DNA from: a virus
Taxonomy: Duplodnaviria > Caudoviricetes
DNA length: 24,672 nt
Reading direction: 5' to 3' (one strand)
IMG/VR virus record: IMGVR_UViG_3300025390_000037
Coordinates: 1-24,672 of that record
Of this stretch, positions 1,106 to 23,742 are shown piece after piece (the stretch's first letter is position 1; each line of letters starts with the position of its first letter). The position numbers and the translations under genes are program-made. Under the pieces are notes generated by a model. That model saw nothing but the letters and a program-made list of their open reading frames with translations, was not told the DNA's origin and did no database searches.

Positions 1106-2583
1106 CAACAACAGTTAATGCAAACTTTTCTGATGTAGCGTCTAAAGTTAATCCTCCACAAGGAATGAGCCTTGGGGATATGCTTAACATGGCTCGTGGT
1201 GCTCAAGCATATCAACAATCAGAACAAGCTAATCCTCTTGCATTACAAAAAGCACAAGCTGATCTAATTAGTGCTCAAATTGGTGCAAAAAAAGCACAAG
1301 GTACATTAGAACCAGAAATTGAAAAAGCTAAATTGGCTACTGAACAAGCAGGTTACGAAGCTAATACTAAAAAAATTGAAAACATAAGGGCGCAAATTTC
1401 TAATCATTCTAGAAGTTTGTTGAAATTAGCTGCTTCTGATGAACCGTTAACGCCTGAAAAATTAAAAGAATGGACGTTAGAAAGATTAAAAAATACAAAT
1501 GCAACTCCTGAAGCTATAAATCAAGAATTAGCTTATTTGCCAAAAACAGGAACTGATGCAGAATTAAGAAAGTTTATTGCTAGGCACGCAACAGATTCAT
1601 TGGATGCTGAAGCGCAATTAAACAAACTTTATCCTGCAGCGACTATGGTTAGTGCTGGTGGTAATATTACACCAAGGCAAATGGGTAATGAAGCATTTAC
1701 AGGAATAAAACCAGGTACTGCAGTTGGGCCATCTATTGCTATTACGCCAACCCCAGGCACTACAACTGTTAATGGTGTTGTTGGTCAATACGATGCGAAC
1801 GGTAAGTTTGTACCTTTTGATGTTCAACCATCAGGCGCTACTGTTGCACCTAGTGCTATGCCAAATGTCGCACCACAAGGGGCAACACAAAAACCTACAA
1901 TTAGCAAAACTTCATTACTGCAATTAGATGAGCCTACATCAAGAGGCCAATTAAATGACCAAGAAAAAACTAGATATGCAACTGGTGAAGAAGATTACAA
2001 AGCATCAGGTGAAAGAGCACAAATTGCACAAGATGCCAAATTAGCTGCAAGACAAATTAAACGTTCCTTGGCTGCATCTTCAGGTAGTAAAGCTGGTCAA
2101 GTTGTTAGGGATGCAGGTCAAATGTTTTTTGGCAATACTGAACTTGATACTTTGGTTAAGAATTTGGCAGAACAACAAGTTAGACAATCAGCGCTTATGG
2201 GTTTGAAATCTGTTGCTGCTGAACAAGACTTAAAGACTGCAAATGGAACTGATAAAGTTACCAATGAAGCCTTGGCTCACATTGTTGAAAGAGCAGAAGC
2301 AACCAACCTTGCTGCTGAAAAATACAATGCTGCATCAGCTAAATTGCAAGATAAGTATGGTAAAACTAAAGCATTTCTTAATACTGACAACTTTAAAAAG
2401 GCATGGTCACAAAACTATGACCCTGTTGCTTTTATTATTCAAAATACAAATCAACAAAATATTCCACAAAAAGACAAAGACACTATCATAGATTACTACA
2501 CATCTGGTATGAGTCAAAGTCAATTAGATCAATTGGCCACTAAGATGAAAAACCTCAAACGACTAGAACGTGGAGATTTCTGA
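1102..2583 (+). CDS. Putative DNA ejection protein (gp20-like position)
   Basis: 493 aa, helical and Ala/Gln/Lys-rich; ATGA overlap with the previous gene. Function inferred from synteny only. Confidence 0.5.
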   Translation: MTTTVNANFSDVASKVNPPQGMSLGDMLNMARGAQAYQQSEQANPLALQKAQADLISAQIGAKKAQGTLEPEIEKAKLATEQAGYEANTKKIENIRAQISNHSRSLLKLAASDEPLTPEKLKEWTLERLKNTNATPEAINQELAYLPKTGTDAELRKFIARHATDSLDAEAQLNKLYPAATMVSAGGNITPRQMGNEAFTGIKPGTAVGPSIAITPTPGTTTVNGVVGQYDANGKFVPFDVQPSGATVAPSAMPNVAPQGATQKPTISKTSLLQLDEPTSRGQLNDQEKTRYATGEEDYKASGERAQIAQDAKLAARQIKRSLAASSGSKAGQVVRDAGQMFFGNTELDTLVKNLAEQQVRQSALMGLKSVAAEQDLKTANGTDKVTNEALAHIVERAEATNLAAEKYNAASAKLQDKYGKTKAFLNTDNFKKAWSQNYDPVAFIIQNTNQQNIPQKDKDTIIDYYTSGMSQSQLDQLATKMKNLKRLERGDF

Positions 2584-9649: not shown

Positions 9650-9815
9650 TTTCTAATTCCTTAATTCTCGCTGCAATGGCCTTACCTAACCCTGTAAATA
9701 GACCTGTTGGGTCTTTCTCCATGATCCCAACTTGGTATCGTGCGTGGTCAATCCAACCTGGCATCATGGCTAGACGTGCGTAATGGTCAATAAATTGCTC
9801 AATTTCAAACATCAT
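9615..9815 (-). CDS. Hypothetical protein
   Basis: ORF probably starting MMFEIEQ at 9815, overlapping the methyltransferase stop (ATGA). Confidence 0.55.
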   Translation of the reverse strand: MMFEIEQFIDHYARLAMMPGWIDHARYQVGIMEKDPTGLFTGLGKAIAARIKELENESSTSGSESR

Positions 9816-10548
9816 TCTGAGAGTATATTCCATGCAACTGCTGCCACTCTAGGAACTTGTCCATTGCCAATGGCTTTAAGTCTGTCCACTCTAGAGGCCA
9901 TCCCATTAACCACTCGACCCACGTTGGGTTCAACCGGCCATCCGTAGTTGGCTCTAAGCTCATCACCACTTCTCCAAGATTGCTTTTCCAATGTTGGTTG
10001 GTCGGGTCTAGATGTCTGCTGATTGCGTGTCTTGAATCCTGGCAAACTGGTGTGGGCCACTTCTTTTGCGACAATCCAAATTCTATCTCTCTGATGTGGC
10101 GCTCCAATGTCACCTGCTCCCAACACTCCCCATCTCGCATTAAACCCCATTGAGGCCAAGTCTCCAAGAACTCGTCCAAGCCCCCTAGAAGTGAGCATTG
10201 GTGAGTTTTCCACAAAGACGTGCTTTGGTCGTACCTCGTGAATGATGCGAGCCATTTGTCCCCACATTCCTGATCGTTCTCCGTCAATTCCTGCGCCTTT
10301 TCCTGCTGCTGAGATGTCTTGGCATGGAAATCCTCCCGAAACAACGTCAACAATTCCTCTCCACGGTCTTCCGTCAAAGGTTTTAACGTCATCCCAAATC
10401 GGGAAAGGCGGGAGAAGACCGTCATTTTGTCGGGCGCACAATACGCTTCCTGGATAGGCTTCCCATTCGACTGCACAGACTGTTCGCCATCCGAGCAAAT
10501 GTCCCCCAAGTATTCCTCCACCAGCGCCTGCGAAAAGAGCCAACTCAT
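9805..10548 (-). CDS. Overlapping alternative-frame protein, putative methyltransferase beta-like chain (TRD plus motif IX)
   Basis: 247 codons open across the MTase gene. C-terminal WPTP...GRLNPTWVEWLMGWP resembles C5-MTase motif IX. ATG directly follows the upstream gene's stop. Confidence 0.72.
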   Translation of the reverse strand: MSWLFSQALVEEYLGDICSDGEQSVQSNGKPIQEAYCAPDKMTVFSRLSRFGMTLKPLTEDRGEELLTLFREDFHAKTSQQQEKAQELTENDQECGDKWLASFTRYDQSTSLWKTHQCSLLGGLDEFLETWPQWGLMRDGECWEQVTLERHIREIEFGLSQKKWPTPVCQDSRHAISRHLDPTNQHWKSNLGEVVMSLEPTTDGRLNPTWVEWLMGWPLEWTDLKPLAMDKFLEWQQLHGIYSQNDV

Positions 10549-10552
10549 TCAT
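9812..10552 (-). CDS. C5-cytosine DNA methyltransferase, catalytic (alpha-like) chain
   Basis: Motif I LFAGAGG, IV GGFPCQ, VI VENS, VIII HQRDR and X LKAIGNGQVP; no recognisable motif IX. Confidence 0.92.
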   Translation of the reverse strand: MNELALFAGAGGGILGGHLLGWRTVCAVEWEAYPGSVLCARQNDGLLPPFPIWDDVKTFDGRPWRGIVDVVSGGFPCQDISAAGKGAGIDGERSGMWGQMARIIHEVRPKHVFVENSPMLTSRGLGRVLGDLASMGFNARWGVLGAGDIGAPHQRDRIWIVAKEVAHTSLPGFKTRNQQTSRPDQPTLEKQSWRSGDELRANYGWPVEPNVGRVVNGMASRVDRLKAIGNGQVPRVAAVAWNILSE

Positions 10553-16156: not shown

Positions 16157-16399
16157 GTGATGGATAGTAATTGTAAGTCATGTCGTTATTTCTTGGGTAA
16201 AGATACACTAGGGCAATGTCGTAGGTATCCTGTCTATCAAAACAGACATGAGAACGAATGGTGTGGAGAATTCGAGAATAGAAAATATTCCGATGAACCC
16301 ACGCCTATTCCTACTTTTGAGAGCATGGCGAGGGAACTAACGAGTTTACCTATGTACCAAGAGCCAAAGAAACGTGGGAGGCCAACAAAAAATGCTTAA
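16157..16399 (+). CDS. Small Cys-rich phage protein
   Basis: CKSCRYF...CRRYP...WCGEF, with C-terminal KKRGRP AT-hook-like motif. Confidence 0.7.
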   Translation: MMDSNCKSCRYFLGKDTLGQCRRYPVYQNRHENEWCGEFENRKYSDEPTPIPTFESMARELTSLPMYQEPKKRGRPTKNA

Positions 16400-16649
16400 A
16401 CCTTTGAGAGATCGAGTGGTTGTGAAGCCGTTGGTCAGAAACATATCTGACATAATCTATGTTGATAATAAAGAACCCTTTAATGAAGGTACTATTGTTG
16501 CTATTGGGCCATTGGTCGATCAGGCAATGGTTGGTGACTTTATTAAGTATGGGAACGGTGATTATCTTAACTGGCCTGTTCAGAGAATAGACGGTCAAGA
16601 CTATCAAATTATCCAAGAGGCAGATATATGCGCCATTCTAGAGGAGTGA
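16392..16649 (+). CDS. groES: GroES/Cpn10 co-chaperonin
   Basis: MLKPLRDRVVVKP, GTIVAIGP, VGD and YQIIQEADICAILE; start at 16392. Confidence 0.85.
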   Translation: MLKPLRDRVVVKPLVRNISDIIYVDNKEPFNEGTIVAIGPLVDQAMVGDFIKYGNGDYLNWPVQRIDGQDYQIIQEADICAILEE

Positions 16650-17392: not shown

Positions 17393-17550
17393 TGTTTAAC
17401 TTTACACATTCAACCCAAGAGGTTAATTTGGTCATCCAAGCACTTGAGCACAAGATTAGAGACTTGACTGAGTTGTTGAACAAAATGGTTCAGAACGCAC
17501 AAGCTCAAGCCCCCAAGCCTGAAGTTCAAGAAGCACCAAAGGCTGAATGA
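17392..17550 (+). CDS. Small coiled-coil protein (52 aa), not in ORF track
   Basis: MFNFTHSTQEVNLVIQALEHKIRDL...; TAATG and ATGA overlaps. Confidence 0.65.
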   Translation: MFNFTHSTQEVNLVIQALEHKIRDLTELLNKMVQNAQAQAPKPEVQEAPKAE

Positions 17551-17939
17551 TGCCAGGAGGACGCCCAACCGATTACGATGAGTCATTCTGCGATAAAGTC
17601 GTGGAGTTGGGCGCTATGGGTAAGTCTGTAGAGCAAATAGCCAAAGAACTAGGCTTTGCTATTAGAACTTTATACTTATGGAGAGATACTTATCCACAGT
17701 TTATGCAAGCCTTAAACACAGCTAAGGAATTAGAGCAAGCATGGTGGGAAGATCAAGCTCAAGCGTATATGTTAGAGCACAAAGATGGGCCAAAACTGAA
17801 CGCAACATTGTGGTCTAGGTCGATGGCTGCTAGGTTTCCTAAGAAGTATAGAGATAACTCTAAGATTGAGTTGACTGGTGAAGGTGGAGCGCCATTGATT
17901 CCACACATACAAGTTAGTTTTGTAAAGCCCAATGAATGA
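17547..17939 (+). CDS. terS: Terminase small subunit
   Basis: GRPTDY start, HTH (SVEQIAKELGFAIRTLYLW), directly upstream of terL. Confidence 0.85.
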   Translation: MMPGGRPTDYDESFCDKVVELGAMGKSVEQIAKELGFAIRTLYLWRDTYPQFMQALNTAKELEQAWWEDQAQAYMLEHKDGPKLNATLWSRSMAARFPKKYRDNSKIELTGEGGAPLIPHIQVSFVKPNE

Positions 17940-19212
17940 AATTCAAGAGGCGATAAGTAGGGCAGAGTTTCCCCAAAAACTCCAATGTTTATTTGTTCCT
18001 GAAAAAGCTCGCTATCGCACGATCTATGGCGGTCGTGGGGGTGGCAAATCTCACTCGGTCGCAAAAGCGCTATTGGTCAAGGGAGCAATGGCAACCTTAC
18101 GCATTTTGTGTGCTCGTGAGTTCCAAACGTCTATTAGGGATTCTGTACACAAACTACTGTGCGACCAAATCGAGTTATTGGGTTTGTCAACGTTTTACGA
18201 AATAACCCAAAATTCTATACGAGGTAAAAATGGTACAGAGTTTGCCTTTGTTGGGTTGAAGAATAACATTGCTAACGTAAAATCATTTGAAGGAATAGAC
18301 ATTTGTTGGGTGGAGGAGGCCCAAACGGTTTCAAGAATGTCATGGAACATATTGATTCCAACGATCCGAAAAGAGGATTCTGAAATATGGATCACGTTTA
18401 ACCCAGAGTTAGAAACGGACGAAACCTATCAACGCTTTATTGTCAATGCGCCTGAAAATTCCGTAGTTGCCAAGGTCAATTGGTCTGACAATCCTTGGTT
18501 TCCTGAAACGCTACGACTAGAGAAAGACGCACTAAGAGCAAGAGACCCAGAGGCCTATAACACGGTTTGGGAGGGTCTATGTAGGCAAACGGTAGATGGC
18601 GCTATCTTTGCCAAAGAAATCCAATTTGCAGAGCTAGATGGGCGCATCACTAGAGTGCCTTATGACGCTACAAAGCCTGTACACGCCATTTTTGACCTTG
18701 GGTGGAGTGATGCTACTGCCATTTGGTTTATGCAGTTTGTAGGCATGGAAAATAGGCTTATAAGGTACTTTGAGACTAACCAAGAAACCATGTCTAGCAT
18801 CCTCAATAAGATGCAAGGATTTGGGTATATCTACGATACTTTGTGGCTACCCCATGACGCAGAGAACAAAACTTTGGCTGGAAATGGTCGAAGTATTGAA
18901 GAAATTGTACGAAATTTGGGTTATAAGACTAGAATAGTGCCTAAAGTACCAATTGTGGATTCCATTAACGCTGCGAGAACTATTTTCAGTAACTGTTACT
19001 TTGATCGTGAGAACTGCCATCAAGGGCTAGAAGCTCTGAGGCATTATCGCTATGAAGTAGACCCTGATACTGGGATGTTCTCTAAGACGCCTTTACATGA
19101 CAATTACAGTCATGGAGCAGATGCGTTTAGGTACATTGGGCTAATGATTAGCGAGCCTAAAAAAGTCGTTAAGAAAGCGCCTGTAAATATTCAATCTTCT
19201 TGGATGGGTTAA
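17932..19212 (+). CDS. terL: Terminase large subunit (PBSX-like)
   Basis: Walker A YGGRGGGKS, Walker B ICWVEEA, TFNP, nuclease DLGWSD and HGADAFRY. Confidence 0.95.
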   Translation: MNEIQEAISRAEFPQKLQCLFVPEKARYRTIYGGRGGGKSHSVAKALLVKGAMATLRILCAREFQTSIRDSVHKLLCDQIELLGLSTFYEITQNSIRGKNGTEFAFVGLKNNIANVKSFEGIDICWVEEAQTVSRMSWNILIPTIRKEDSEIWITFNPELETDETYQRFIVNAPENSVVAKVNWSDNPWFPETLRLEKDALRARDPEAYNTVWEGLCRQTVDGAIFAKEIQFAELDGRITRVPYDATKPVHAIFDLGWSDATAIWFMQFVGMENRLIRYFETNQETMSSILNKMQGFGYIYDTLWLPHDAENKTLAGNGRSIEEIVRNLGYKTRIVPKVPIVDSINAARTIFSNCYFDRENCHQGLEALRHYRYEVDPDTGMFSKTPLHDNYSHGADAFRYIGLMISEPKKVVKKAPVNIQSSWMG

Positions 19213-19214
19213 AC

Positions 19215-21293
19215 ATGGTAGATGATCTTGAATCTAGCGACTTAATAGCAGACGCACAAGCCTTTTTGCACTTATGTGTAGAGGCAGATATGATGAACCG
19301 TACTGAGGCGCTAGAAGACCTTAGATTTAGCGCTGGTGACCAATGGCCTGTTGAGATTCAAAACTCACGCACTTTAGAGTCACGCCCATGTCTAACTATT
19401 AACAAGGTAGACGCATATTGTCGACAGATTACTAACAACATACGCCAACAACGCCCACGCATCAAGGTTCATGGTGTAAACAATGAATCTGATGAGAAGA
19501 TGGCAGACATCCTCACCGGCATTTGTAGGCACATCGAGGTCAACTCAGACGCAGACCAAGCCTATGATAACGCTGCAGACTACGCAGTTCGCATGGGTTG
19601 GGGTTTTATTAGGGTCAATACAGACTATGTAAGAGAAGATTCTTTTGACCAAGAAATCTACATCAAGTCAATAATGAACCCATTTACGGTTTATTTTGAT
19701 CCTAATTCCATATTGCCTGACGGTTCAGACGCAGAGAAAGTTCTAATTACTGAGGTTATTTCTAAGAAGCAATTTAAGGATATGTACCCTGACGCAGACG
19801 AGGGTGTTCAGTTCAACCAAAGGGGAGCTGGGGACACAAATGCAGAATGGGTGATGAAAGAAGATATTCGCATCGCAGAATACTTCTATACAGTACGCAC
19901 AAAAACCAAGTTATTGCTTTTGGCAGATGGGTCAAAAATATACAAAGACTTGTATAAAGGTGACCCAAATTTAATCATCGACCAAAGGGACACGGTCAAG
20001 AAAGAAATCCGTTGGGCAAAGCTCACAGGGATGCAAATCCTAGAAGAAGGCGTGTGGGCAGGTCGTTATATCCCTATCGTTCCTGTTTACGGTCACCAAT
20101 TGATCGTTGAGAACAAGCGCAAAAAGTTTGGTTTGGTGCGCCAGGCTAAAGACCCACAAAGGATGTACAACTTTTGGCAAACGTCAATGACTGAATCCGT
20201 GGCTTTAGCGCCTAAACCTAAGTGGTTGTTGGCAGAAGGTCAAGACGAGGGCCATGAGAACGAGTGGGCACAAGCTAACGTTAAATCTGCGCCTGTGCTC
20301 AGATATAAGCAAGTGGACATCGAGGGCAGACCAGCTCCTGTTCCTACTCGCATCCAACCTGAAGCGCCTCCTGCGGGCATTATGACCGCCTCTGCCCAAG
20401 TTTCTATGGACTTGCAAGCAGTTATTGGCATTGTTGATCCTAACCAATTGCCCCAAGGTAACATTTCAGGCAAGGCTTTGAACGGTCAACAACAACAAGT
20501 TGATTTGTCAAACTACCACTTTTACGACAATTTAACTCGTTCTATTCGTCACATTGGTAAAATCATCCTAGATTTAGTGCCTAAGATTTACGACACAGAG
20601 CGTGTGATGCGTATCATTGGTGACGATGGTAAGCCTGACTTGGTGACCCTAAACACACCTGGAACTGACGAGTTTGGCATCAATAAGATACTGAATGACG
20701 TAACGGTTGGTGAGTATGATGTGGTGATGGACACAGGCCCAGGGTATAACTCCAAGCGCCAAGAGGCAGTTCAAGCCATGATGCCCTTGTTTAGCGCAGA
20801 CCCACAACTTATGCAAGTCGCTGGTGACTTATTTATTCGCAATATGGACTTCCCAGGTGCTCAAGTCATCGCAGATCGTTTGGCAGTCAATAACCCATTG
20901 GCTAACATTGACAATAAATCTGCTATTCCCCCACAAGTTCAGATGCAATTGGCTCAGTCTCAACAACAAACTCAAGCCTTGCAACAACAGATTCAACAGT
21001 TGCAGATGGCTATGAAGCAACGCCAAGACATTGAAAGTGTCAAACAAGACGCAGAAACTAAGCGTGAACTCATGCGTCAGACTGCCAAGGCGCACAACAC
21101 AGAATCTATGCTTGAAGCTCGTGTACACGATGTGAACACCAAAGCAATTACAAGCCAAAACAAGACAGAAATTGAGTCAATCATGGAGTTGTTGTTGCAC
21201 CACATGGACACAGGGCGTTTAGAGCGTGAAATCGCTGCTAGAAACGCTGAACAGTACCAATATGCAAACCAATCTGTTCAATCCATAAGTTGA
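19215..21293 (+). CDS. Portal protein, P22-like
   Basis: GDQWP, RPCLTINK, KDPQRMYN, ISGKAL, YDVVMDTGPGYNSKRQE and a Gln-rich C-terminal coiled coil; start probably MVDD at 19215. Confidence 0.92.
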   Translation: MVDDLESSDLIADAQAFLHLCVEADMMNRTEALEDLRFSAGDQWPVEIQNSRTLESRPCLTINKVDAYCRQITNNIRQQRPRIKVHGVNNESDEKMADILTGICRHIEVNSDADQAYDNAADYAVRMGWGFIRVNTDYVREDSFDQEIYIKSIMNPFTVYFDPNSILPDGSDAEKVLITEVISKKQFKDMYPDADEGVQFNQRGAGDTNAEWVMKEDIRIAEYFYTVRTKTKLLLLADGSKIYKDLYKGDPNLIIDQRDTVKKEIRWAKLTGMQILEEGVWAGRYIPIVPVYGHQLIVENKRKKFGLVRQAKDPQRMYNFWQTSMTESVALAPKPKWLLAEGQDEGHENEWAQANVKSAPVLRYKQVDIEGRPAPVPTRIQPEAPPAGIMTASAQVSMDLQAVIGIVDPNQLPQGNISGKALNGQQQQVDLSNYHFYDNLTRSIRHIGKIILDLVPKIYDTERVMRIIGDDGKPDLVTLNTPGTDEFGINKILNDVTVGEYDVVMDTGPGYNSKRQEAVQAMMPLFSADPQLMQVAGDLFIRNMDFPGAQVIADRLAVNNPLANIDNKSAIPPQVQMQLAQSQQQTQALQQQIQQLQMAMKQRQDIESVKQDAETKRELMRQTAKAHNTESMLEARVHDVNTKAITSQNKTEIESIMELLLHHMDTGRLEREIAARNAEQYQYANQSVQSIS

Positions 21294-21351
21294 CAAAATA
21301 AGCATTTCGTGTTAAAAACACAAAACCTTACCTATGAGGTTCATAGGGTAA
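21290..21351 (+). promoter_or_regulatory. Possible promoter and leader hairpin of the scaffold gene
   Basis: TTGACA 21290-21295, 17 nt, TAAAAA; hairpin CCTATGA-ggt-TCATAGG at 21331-21347 before the GAGGA RBS. Confidence 0.4.
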
Positions 21352-21367
21352 ATTCTTGAGGAAACTC

Positions 21368-22237
21368 ATGTCTGAAAAAGAAGCGAGCCAAGTGCTCACA
21401 AGTGAAAATTCTGGTGATTTTTATGCTCAAAAATTGGGTTTAGCTAACGAGACACCTGTAGAAGCTGCAGAACCTACAGAACCTCCAAAGAGTGAACCTG
21501 AAGCGTTAGAAGAACCAAAACCAACAGAAGAACCGAAGCCCAATAAACTTGAAAAGAGGTTTTCTGACATAACAAAGCAACGTGAGATGGCTCGTCAAGA
21601 AGCTGAACGAGAGCGTCAACGTGCTAGTGAGTTGGAAGCTAGGTTGAGAGAACTTGAGGCCAAGATTTCGCCAAAGCCTAATCTTGATGAGGAGCCAAGG
21701 CCTGACCAGTTTCAGGACGCATTTGAGTATGCAAAGGCTTTAGCTGAGTTTTCAACCGAGAAAGCGTTAAAGCAACGTGACCAGCAAGAGGTAGAGAGAA
21801 GGCAAGCGGAGGAACGTGCCAAAACATTTGAGGCATGGAACAAACGCCAAGCAGAGATCAAAGCCGAGTTGCCTGATTACGATGACATGATTGCATCTAG
21901 TGAGGTTGTTGTGAGCGACCAAGTTAGAGATGCGATTTTCGAGAGTGATGTAGGCCCAAGAATCCTATACCACTTAGCAGAAAATCCTGAAATAGCTGAA
22001 AAGCTAGGCAAGATGTCAACGCTAGGCGCTTTACGAGAAATTGGGAAGTTAGAGGCAAGGCTTGAAAAAGCTCCTCAAGAAGAAGTGAAACCTGTTGTGA
22101 AATCAAACGCACCGAAACCGATTAGCCCTATTCGTGCTTCTAGTGCTGCTACAGATACCAATGTTGACTCCAATGGTGAGTTTCATGGTACTTATCAGCA
22201 ATGGAAAGAACAAAGACAGGCTAAGAAGATTAGGTAA
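21368..22237 (+). CDS. Capsid scaffolding protein
   Basis: Acidic/Pro-rich N-terminus, long coiled coil and basic C-terminal tail; lies between portal and capsid genes. Confidence 0.85.
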   Translation: MSEKEASQVLTSENSGDFYAQKLGLANETPVEAAEPTEPPKSEPEALEEPKPTEEPKPNKLEKRFSDITKQREMARQEAERERQRASELEARLRELEAKISPKPNLDEEPRPDQFQDAFEYAKALAEFSTEKALKQRDQQEVERRQAEERAKTFEAWNKRQAEIKAELPDYDDMIASSEVVVSDQVRDAIFESDVGPRILYHLAENPEIAEKLGKMSTLGALREIGKLEARLEKAPQEEVKPVVKSNAPKPISPIRASSAATDTNVDSNGEFHGTYQQWKEQRQAKKIR

Positions 22238-22266
22238 AACTTTTTTCTTTTTAAAGGATATAAATC

Positions 22267-22419
22267 ATGGCAAATAATCTGCTTACCATATCCAAGATCA
22301 CCAATGAAGCGTTGATGGTCTTGGAAAATGAGTTGACTTTTACATCAGAGGTCGATAGAAATTACGATGACCAATTTGCGGTTGTCGGAGCTAAAATCGG
22401 TAATACCGTAAACGTCCGT
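22267..22419 (+). CDS. Major capsid protein (P22 coat-like), exon 1
   Basis: AAGGA RBS; MANNLLTISKITNEALMVLENELTFTSEVDRNYDDQFAVVGAKIGNTVNVR followed by TAA; missing from the ORF track. Confidence 0.9.
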
Positions 22420-22641
22420 TAAGAGTCTGCGGACGAAAAACCCTTTCTGATTGACTTGGACGCCTAGAAGTAGGTTACAAGGGGCAAGCAAGAGAAATCT
22501 GTGCAGCCTGAACGACTAAGTGAAGGGGCGCTAAAGAAATTTAGTGATGCGATAGTCTGACCTACCGTATAACAAAGGAAGCGGTAGAGAGAAATCCGAA
22601 GCGGTTTCTCCCGCAGAGATGCGAGTAACAATTGACCTGTG
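22420..22641 (+). ncRNA. Group I self-splicing intron (222 nt, no ORF)
   Basis: P1 CGTCCGT/GCGGACG with U-G at the splice site; P10 GTCT/AGAC; P3 CCCTTTC/GAAGGGG; P7 GACTA/TAGTC; P8 GAAA hairpin; P9 helices; terminal G at 22641. Removal restores the reading frame. Confidence 0.9.
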
Positions 22642-23742
22642 AGACCAGGTCGCTTTATCGGTACAACTGGCCCTGCTTTGAACGTTGAAGACTTCAACGA
22701 GACTAGCGTTCCTGTGACTTTGAGCACTCAATTCCACGTTGACACTCAATTCACCACGCAAGACTTGGCTTTGTCTCTCGATATGTTTAGCGACCGTGTG
22801 CTTAAGCCCGCAGTTGCAGCTATCGCCAACAAGATTGACCGTGACGGTTTGGTCATGGCTAATCTGAACACCGCCAACATCGTTGGTACACCTGGTACAC
22901 CTCCCACAGGTTTGATTACATACTTGACTGGTCAAGCGTATTTGGACTCTGAAGGTGCTCCTCGTGACGGACGTAGATCATGTATCGTTGAGCCTTTCAC
23001 TTCTGCAACCATTGTTGACTCATTGAAGGGACTTTTTGTTCCCCAAGAGGCAATTGGCGAGCAATACAGGAAAGGGCTTATGGGCCGAGACAGCGGCGGC
23101 ATGAACTGGCGTCTCGATCAAAACGTTGTAGCCCAAGGTTTTGGATTCTGGACAGGTTCTACTGCTGGTTCTATCACCGTTAACGGTTCTAACCAAGGTC
23201 TCGCATCAGGTTGGGCGCAAACTTCTACCATCAACATTACTGCAACTGCAACAGGTACATTGAACCCTGGTGACGTTATCAATTTTGCTGGTGTGTACGC
23301 AGTTAACCCCCAAAACCGTCAAGCGTATGGTTCTAACAAGTTGCGTAATTTTGTTGTTAAATCAGCAGTTGCGTTGACTAACGGAAACACAAGCGTGACA
23401 GTTAGCCCCGCTTTGATCTACGGTGGACAGTTCCAAAACGTAACTGCTTCTCCCACATCAGGCGTTGCAGTAACACCTTACCAAATCGGTGTGTCTTCCA
23501 ACTCTGTGTACTCTCCCCAAAACATTATCATGCACCGCAATGCTTTCACATTGGCAGTCGCTGATCTTGAGTTGCCCGAGGGTGTTCACTTTGCTGGTCG
23601 TGCAAGCGACAAGGAAATTGGATTGTCAATGCGTGTTGTGCGTCAGTACACCATCAACAATGACTCAATCCCAACTCGTCTTGACGTTCTTTATGGATGG
23701 GCACCGCTCTATCCTGAACTCGCTTGCAGAGTTGCAGCTTAA
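22642..23742 (+). CDS. Major capsid protein (P22 coat-like), exon 2; spliced product 417 aa
   Basis: RPGRFIG...LKPAVAAIANKID...GDVINFAGVYAVNP...RLDVLYGW is typical of P22 gp5-like coats. Confidence 0.92.
   Translation, partial: RPGRFIGTTGPALNVEDFNETSVPVTLSTQFHVDTQFTTQDLALSLDMFSDRVLKPAVAAIANKIDRDGLVMANLNTANIVGTPGTPPTGLITYLTGQAYLDSEGAPRDGRRSCIVEPFTSATIVDSLKGLFVPQEAIGEQYRKGLMGRDSGGMNWRLDQNVVAQGFGFWTGSTAGSITVNGSNQGLASGWAQTSTINITATATGTLNPGDVINFAGVYAVNPQNRQAYGSNKLRNFVVKSAVALTNGNTSVTVSPALIYGGQFQNVTASPTSGVAVTPYQIGVSSNSVYSPQNIIMHRNAFTLAVADLELPEGVHFAGRASDKEIGLSMRVVRQYTINNDSIPTRLDVLYGWAPLYPELACRVAA

Follow-up and report, generated by a model that had tools for sequence, protein, structure and literature searches.

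In the virus record analysed here, the reading frame of a P22-like coat gene breaks off after 51 codons and is taken up again 222 nt further on. This raises the question of what the insert is, whether it is removed from the mRNA, and how inserts of this type reach their sites. The window (the whole stretch of DNA that was analysed, 24,672 bases) is an entire linear virus record with an estimated completeness of 73%. We conclude with high confidence that the insert is a real and very likely functional, compact group I intron of the coat gene that carries no open reading frame (ORF), its splicing being deduced from sequence patterns together with group I chemistry.

The interrupted coat gene

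The features of the locus are as follows.

17547-22237 (+): packaging module upstream of the coat gene: terminase small, terminase large, P22-like portal, scaffold
22254-22258 (+): Shine-Dalgarno-like AAGGA, 8 nt ahead of the start codon, read from the sequence
22267-22419 (+): capsid exon 1, 51 codons from ATG 22267, last base U; phrog_283 profile positions 1-48
22420-22641 (+): predicted ORF-less group I intron, 222 nt; first codon an in-frame TAA, last base G; absent from 78 of 80 relatives
22642-23742 (+): capsid exon 2, 366 codons and stop; Pfam P22_CoatProtein (E 1.6e-30), phrog_283

The head module, from the small and large terminase through portal and scaffold to the coat, is P22-like. 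Both parts of the coat gene belong to the same major-head family: exon 1 matches phrog_283 over profile positions 1-48 (E 5e-8) and shares 90-100% identity with intronless relatives at their N-terminus, and exon 2 matches positions 64-382 (E 2e-62). Joined, the exons encode 51 + 366 = 417 aa. Elsewhere in the window, a GroES-like co-chaperonin gene (16374-16649, +) lies a short distance before the terminase genes. On the minus strand, ORFs of 247 and 246 aa (9805-10548 and 9812-10552) overlap almost totally in different frames; both match DNA methyltransferase families (phrog_1008, E 2e-24, and phrog_363, E 2e-65), and the arrangement is presumably akin to that of two-subunit methyltransferases with overlapping frames.

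The boundaries proposed in the initial annotation, with TAA at 22420-22422 after 51 codons, a closing G at 22641 and the frame back at 22642, agree with the sequence. Its expectation that the spliced protein would align contiguously with intronless homologues also held: precise removal restores the frame, and the exons join at exactly that point, with zero gap, in 78 of the best 80 related viral loci. All these 78 run through as one frame; the other two carry inserts of 215 and 222 nt. When a nucleotide profile of 35 intronless genes was used and U|G was not imposed, a single best junction was obtained for the window, after U22419 and after G22641, and the terminal G of the intron is thus placed uniquely without constraint.

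When metagenomes were scanned for 24 bases of exon 1, four matches were obtained, namely the window contig, two contigs with the same insert and one intronless allele. The insert is identical over 222 of 222 nt in the further contigs L341 and L343, and is therefore not an assembly slip. Among 119 exon-selected matches covering the window's site (site 153, in nucleotides of the coat gene of locus L020), 92 are intronless, 4 carry the window-type intron, 21 carry a sister type and 2 are cut off. The longest closed ORF in the window intron is 22 aa, which bears out the view that it is endonuclease-free. Its last three bases (22639-22641) are an in-frame GTG, so that ORF callers give a 367-aa coat protein without its N-terminus; 67 of the 76 family introns among the matches listed terminate in ATG or GTG.

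Predicted RNA fold and proposed splicing of the insert

The following RNA elements were assigned.

22413-22419 with 22429-22435 (+): P1, exon paired with guide, U.G at the 5' splice site; predicted fold, compensatory changes
22425-22428 (+): P10 guide, able to pair with 22642-22645 of exon 2; sequence, 4 bp
22441-22447 with 22522-22528 (+): P3, with the 5' strand of P7 and the P4-P6 domain inside it; two-sided changes in 6 of 7 pairs
22455-22458 with 22478-22481 (+): P4; only a one-sided U-A/U-G change
22462-22475 (+): P5 hairpin; two-sided changes in 4 of 5 pairs
22483-22485 with 22506-22508 (+): P6, with P6a and P6b; two-sided changes in 3 of 3 pairs
22512 and 22514-22518 with 22553-22558 (+): P7, C22513 bulged, crosses P3; invariant in 51 of 51 introns
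22529-22546 (+): P8 hairpin, followed by J8/7
22562-22623 (+): P9, P9.1 and P9.2 hairpins; fold z = -3.9; two-sided changes in 5 of 6 pairs of P9 and 4 of 6 of P9.1
22625-22630 (+): GUAACA motif close to the 3' end, conserved across the family; invariant alignment columns

The helix order is P3-P4-P5-P6-P7-P3'-P8-P7'-P9 with a P3/P7 pseudoknot; P3, P5, P6 and P9 covary, and P7 is complementary. The insert region is predicted to fold more stably than 200 of 200 shuffles (z = -3.0). All helices named in the initial annotation are present, P1, P8 and the three P9 hairpins appearing in predicted folds and P3 showing two-sided changes at 6 of 7 pairs, but its list lacked P4-P6 (22455-22508) and the P7 pair A22512-U22558 with the bulged C22513. 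The arrangement of A-U, bulged C and G-C in P7 is found in 51 of 51 introns, and G22514-C22557 is likely to be the guanosine site, by analogy with established group I chemistry.

Covariation was assessed on 51 distinct family introns with a 39-pair group I model drawn from the window row. Across these introns 97.3% of the cells are paired, whereas the value is 79% for shuffles and 38-46% when partners are slid, although the model was drawn from the same sequences, which favours it over the slid controls, and the relatives are not independent. Two-sided changes occur at 23 of the 39 pairs. P7 never varies and P4 (four standard pairs) varies on one side, so neither is backed by covariation.

The initial annotation expected a covariance-model match. 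None was obtained from the Rfam group I or II models for the window (E<=1), the insert region (E<=10) or eight relatives (E<=10). This does not refute group I membership, since covariation carries the case and the Rfam model RF00028 is reported to lack some subgroups, its seed containing no ID or IE introns (PMC11878797). In 76 of 76 family introns among the matches listed, J7/3 consists of the three bases AGU; P7 runs straight into P3', and there is therefore no P7.1 or P7.2. In subgroup IA, which includes the IA2 phage introns, these extra helices stand between P7 and P3'. The core motifs of the present intron may resemble those of subgroup ID. P7.1 and P7.2 are named as class features in the relevant passage of PMC3984707.

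The splice-site pairings follow the exons. In the window, the predicted P1 has 7 bp with a U.G pair at the 5' site. Anchored on U.G, P1 is 4 bp or longer in every one of the 51 introns and 5 bp or longer in 41 of them; the corresponding figures for 2194 cross-site control pairings are 42% and 18%. The first sample contains 12 distinct introns at site 153, all with identical bases at the seven exon positions, and only 13 of 78 intronless alleles, which are not independent relatives, are compatible with the site-153 guide. A compensatory change of P1 pair 7 from C-G to U-A is seen in L281 and L289 at site 153, and a similar one at site 143. P10 has 4 bp in the window; with a strict script, at least 3 bp were found in 24 of 51 introns versus 29% of controls. 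Moreover, intron lengths are spread over the three frames (21, 17 and 13 of 51) and all introns contain in-frame stops, so their removal is needed.

According to established group I chemistry, from which the roles of P1, P7 and P10 are taken, splicing may proceed as follows. P1 would set the U.G pair at the 5' site, where a free guanosine bound in P7 would cut. The terminal G would then enter the same P7 pocket while P10 aligns exon 2, and the exons would be joined. The intron is likely to be lost from the late mRNA by means of its own ribozyme, which would restore the 417-aa P22-like coat protein, and the in-frame TAA at the first base of the intron would stop ribosomes ahead of the core. Protein help is possible, given that four of eight Bastillevirinae introns are reported to be spliced only in infected cells (PMC11878797).

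Two other explanations of the insert were considered. It could be the remnant of an intron that no longer functions, in a defective phage, or an error of assembly, as the record is uncultured and partial; however, the same insert recurs in two further contigs, all core positions of the window intron match the family alignment, and both exons and the adjoining head genes are intact, which makes this very improbable. More improbable still is that the RNA stays unspliced and the ribosome hops over the insert, for which T4 gene 60 is the precedent, or that the coat consists of two products, a 51-aa peptide and a 367-aa protein started at GTG 22639: the stop right after codon 51 beside a hairpin and the in-frame GTG would suit such schemes, but no matching landing codon lies ahead of 22642, relatives have the gene interrupted at 15 sites (among the matches listed), as many as three times in one gene and in every phase, there would be no need of a covarying pseudoknotted core, and the 78 of 78 intronless relatives have one continuous frame.

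The intron family and its spread

The window intron, taken to be a functional group I intron, has many relatives. Core-motif scans of viral contigs gave at least 120 and at least 123 stretches in two samples, out of estimated totals of about 170 and 230, and a scan of species genomes gave 13. Among the matches listed, this coat gene alone contains at least 76 distinct introns of 215-281 nt at no fewer than 15 sites, with up to three per gene. In nucleotides of the L020 gene, the listed sites are 67, 116, 135, 143, 153, 221, 255, 311, 326, 612, 614, 1061, 1146, 1157 and 1172. The second sample, in which U|G was imposed, recovered 10 of the 15 and added no new site among its listed matches. In the first sample, U|G was among the near-best junctions in 75 of 83 calls and the top one in 36 of those; the remaining 8 of 83 were moved to U|G, among them L148, which proved wrong (mis-anchored) and was removed. 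In the second sample, L321 did not satisfy the end-motif rule. Apparent introns in the middle of the coat, which is rich in Thr, Ala and Gly, were discarded by requiring the P7 motif and a length of <=400 nt.

Several individual loci deserve mention. At sites 1157 and 1172, P1 contains a long hairpin extension that stays in frame for 13-14 codons (L085, L093, L098, L128 and L177). We had considered it a "spare exon" but, judged by eye, it is no more than a lengthened P1 hairpin that runs into a stop after those 13-14 codons. In L119 (oriented 854-2218), an intron comes after coat codons 28-362, and the exon downstream of it starts over at codon 110; this sequence would represent either a duplication that arose when two introns recombined or a chimera made in assembly. 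L208, a contig of a Burkholderiales genome bin, has this coat gene with a site-326 intron, which may be a weak hint of the host, or a case of misbinning.

The family extends beyond this coat gene, where loci were assigned by the flanking ORF and intron boundaries were not fixed. In a tally by hand of 160 long-flank loci among the matches listed, which are redundant, derive from search patterns that start from the window intron and include six assigned as duplicates without a scan, 70 belong to this coat, 47 to other major capsid families, 13 to tape measure genes, 7 to portal or terminase and 3 to anaerobic ribonucleotide reductase, leaving 20 without assignment. About 137 of the 140 assigned loci, again among the matches listed, adjoin virion genes. 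By blastn against 50,697 phage records, only two relatives with the window's intron were found, MW202674 and Roseobacter phage CRP-118, both unannotated, and further family queries hit no annotated intron beneath a match in those records. In MW202674 (L081:2448-2715), GenBank splits the intron-bearing coat into two coat CDSs plus a hypothetical protein within the intron. In the cultured phage CRP-118 (OR420741, L082:2490-2660), the unannotated family member lies between two ribonucleotide reductase CDSs. Judged from these comparisons, the window intron belongs to a lineage which Rfam does not detect and which occupies at least 15 sites of the coat gene as well as other capsid, tape-measure, portal and ribonucleotide-reductase genes.

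The sites have features in common. Among the 15 listed, the 5' exon ends in CCGU at 6 and in CCAU at 2, against backgrounds at U positions of 1.4% and 1.0% (binomial 4e-8 for CCGU). Guide and P2 are identical over 31 bases between sites 221 and 326 and over 26 between 1157 and 1172, and 18 bases of P2 are common to sites with different endings (255 and 326). Guide base five mismatches the exon at 221 and 1146 yet pairs at 116, 326 and 1061. The core tree mixes sites, requiring 21 changes where 14 are possible; it is reticulate and unsettled by bootstrap, and no order of events is drawn from it. The window intron and L001:1786-2000 are identical outside the P5-P6 block, which matches blocks at other sites, and this points to the exchange of modules by recombination between intron copies.

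The shared CCGU endings and guides fit guide-directed transposition. They also fit selection, given that only guide-matched insertions would survive in an essential gene. We tentatively favour spread by guide-directed reverse splicing and recombination between intron copies over endonuclease and other routes, while giving it something short of an even chance. The same pattern has been argued to reflect reverse splicing for the group I introns of fungal rDNA (PMC1299323), and direct in vivo proof of the RNA route of group I transposition is described as lacking in the passage of PMC3984707 that treats it.

A serious alternative, to which we give only a slightly smaller chance, is DNA homing by endonucleases that act in trans or have since been lost (collaborative homing), the shared exon endings being due merely to selection for sites that pair with the guide in an essential gene. 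Collaborative homing of ORF-less phage introns is published (PMC3984707, PMC10448857), and endonuclease VII, GIY-YIG or HNH ORFs occur beside or within distant family members. Selection alone would likewise predict guide-matched sites, and each of the 15 listed is located in a conserved stretch (window conservation >=0.9), yet 71% of all windows are conserved to this degree. On the other side, none of the 76 coat-gene introns among the matches listed exceeds 281 nt or has an ORF >52 aa, and no true gap >330 nt was found among 74 coat loci, the odd locus L119 apart. A nuclease domain is absent from nine representative downstream ORF clusters of intron-bearing coat loci, for which no reverse transcriptase was called either, and the scanned proteins of the window, a genome of 73% completeness, gave no call of a homing endonuclease or of a reverse transcriptase. 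Finally, the 3' exons of the CCGU sites differ and have no sequence in common. As a separate observation, the distant members L120, L143, L154, L209, L237, L250 and L263 have endonuclease VII or GIY-YIG ORFs within or just after the intron and are possible collaborative-homing pairs.

Core-less inserts and known systems

Some relatives carry short inserts without a core, neither kind of which is present in the window. Among the matches listed, an insert of 32-41 nt lies in codon 40 of the coat gene in 31 of 187 coat-bearing locus entries, and one of 11-12 nt follows codon 34 in 6 of 187. Both kinds have U before, G at the end and a complete core within 70 nt. The longer insert accompanies the sister-type site-153 intron in 21 of 21 cases and is found with none of 92 intronless and none of 4 window-type alleles. 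For example, L087 carries it at 1846-1885 (+), the full intron there being at codon 51; other loci are L086, L089, L091, L095, L097, L100, L101, L113, L172, L240, L269, L321, L335 and others. In its 15 distinct versions, a P1 of 7 of 8 pairs, a P10 of 4-5 bp and an anchor of 7-11 bp all follow exon changes. The anchor pairs with the exon just ahead of the full intron's P1, with a mean of 9.3 versus 5.7 with intronless exons. By analogy, the neighbouring core may excise this insert, and group I ribozymes are reported to perform such an excision in vitro, by trans-excision-splicing (PMC2532722). The shorter insert contains an in-frame stop and occurs only with the site-143 intron (L098:1875-1885 (+), L157:1874-1885 (+), L114, L159, L201 and L202). 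It may be a micro-intron removed by the ribozyme next to it; the downstream exon could supply a guide of 7 pairs, a weak indication, as 6 of 77 intronless alleles also allow it.

The widest reading of these data is that an undescribed compact group I lineage has specialised on phage virion mRNAs and reaches new sites in the abundant capsid transcript by guide-directed reverse splicing. At the same codon, the core of the sister introns would also excise a tethered core-less satellite of 32-41 nt that lies 34 nt ahead of it, and the 11-12-nt insert would be excised likewise at a site close by. As a whole we regard this reading as speculative and rather unlikely. If the neighbouring ribozyme does excise the core-less inserts, they would be a natural counterpart of the laboratory trans-excision-splicing (PMC2532722).

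The single window intron is ordinary in kind, and its importance rests with the family. The initial annotation implied that group I introns in capsid genes are rare; such introns are already published (PMC3706429, PMC2504315 Table 3, PMC7886860). The kind is therefore known, while the lineage, the density of its sites and its bias towards virion genes appear undescribed: in a literature search that mostly covered papers available without subscription, we found no account of this intron family or of core-less phage mini-introns. Reviews state, in the passages cited, that phage group I introns favour genes of DNA and nucleotide metabolism (PMC12350094, PMC11878797). This skew may partly be a detection bias, as the lineage missed by Rfam lies mostly by virion genes. 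In practice, gene callers split capsid genes that serve as phage markers. Furthermore, a single gene of 1.25 kb that offers at least 15 sites, some with the same guide and some with a guide that mismatches at one base, provides a natural donor-target set for in vitro tests.

Several known systems resemble the present one in part. The three introns in Twort orf142 are of subgroup IA2. Staphylococcus phage Twort orf142, too, has its three introns in one late structural gene, but this is a tail tube gene of another lineage (PMC11878797). In mycobacteriophage LittleE, the major capsid gene has an intron with U before and G at the end, whose splicing was shown by RT-PCR; unlike the window intron, it is about 820 bp long, has a putative homing endonuclease and occupies one site (PMC3706429), and blastn with the window intron did not match it at E<=1. 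The tail-gene intron of BAKA and Optimus (265 bp in BAKA) is, as here, ORF-less and in a virion gene (PMC3706429), and Lactococcus phage Tuc2009 has a group I intron in its major head gene (PMC2504315, PMC3706429).

Other parallels concern whole sets of introns. Those of Bacillus cereus prophages interrupt virion genes (tape-measure, terminase and tail-tube) and, as in the present family, related introns occupy different sites of one gene with adapted guides, and different introns share one site and the same guide; they are, however, IA1/IA2 introns at three sites in one gene, whereas the present family has no P7.1/P7.2 and at least 15 sites (PMC2504315). In crAss-like phages the MCP gene is likewise found in five pieces (Yutin et al. 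2021, PMC7886860), but those introns were found through endonuclease domains, while the present ones are ORF-less and in small P22-like phages. Jug phages also have many small group I introns (~206 nt), ORF-less by the thousand and with RNA support for 37 of 76; the reported examples, however, are in terL, nrdD and polymerase genes of 360-400 kb genomes (PMC12880540), in contrast to the small P22-like phages here. Finally, the fungal rDNA introns are, like the present family, endonuclease-free and located at different sites with only 4-8 nt of 5' exon in common (Bhattacharya et al. 2005, PMC1299323), but they reside in eukaryote rRNA and the present ones in phage mRNA.
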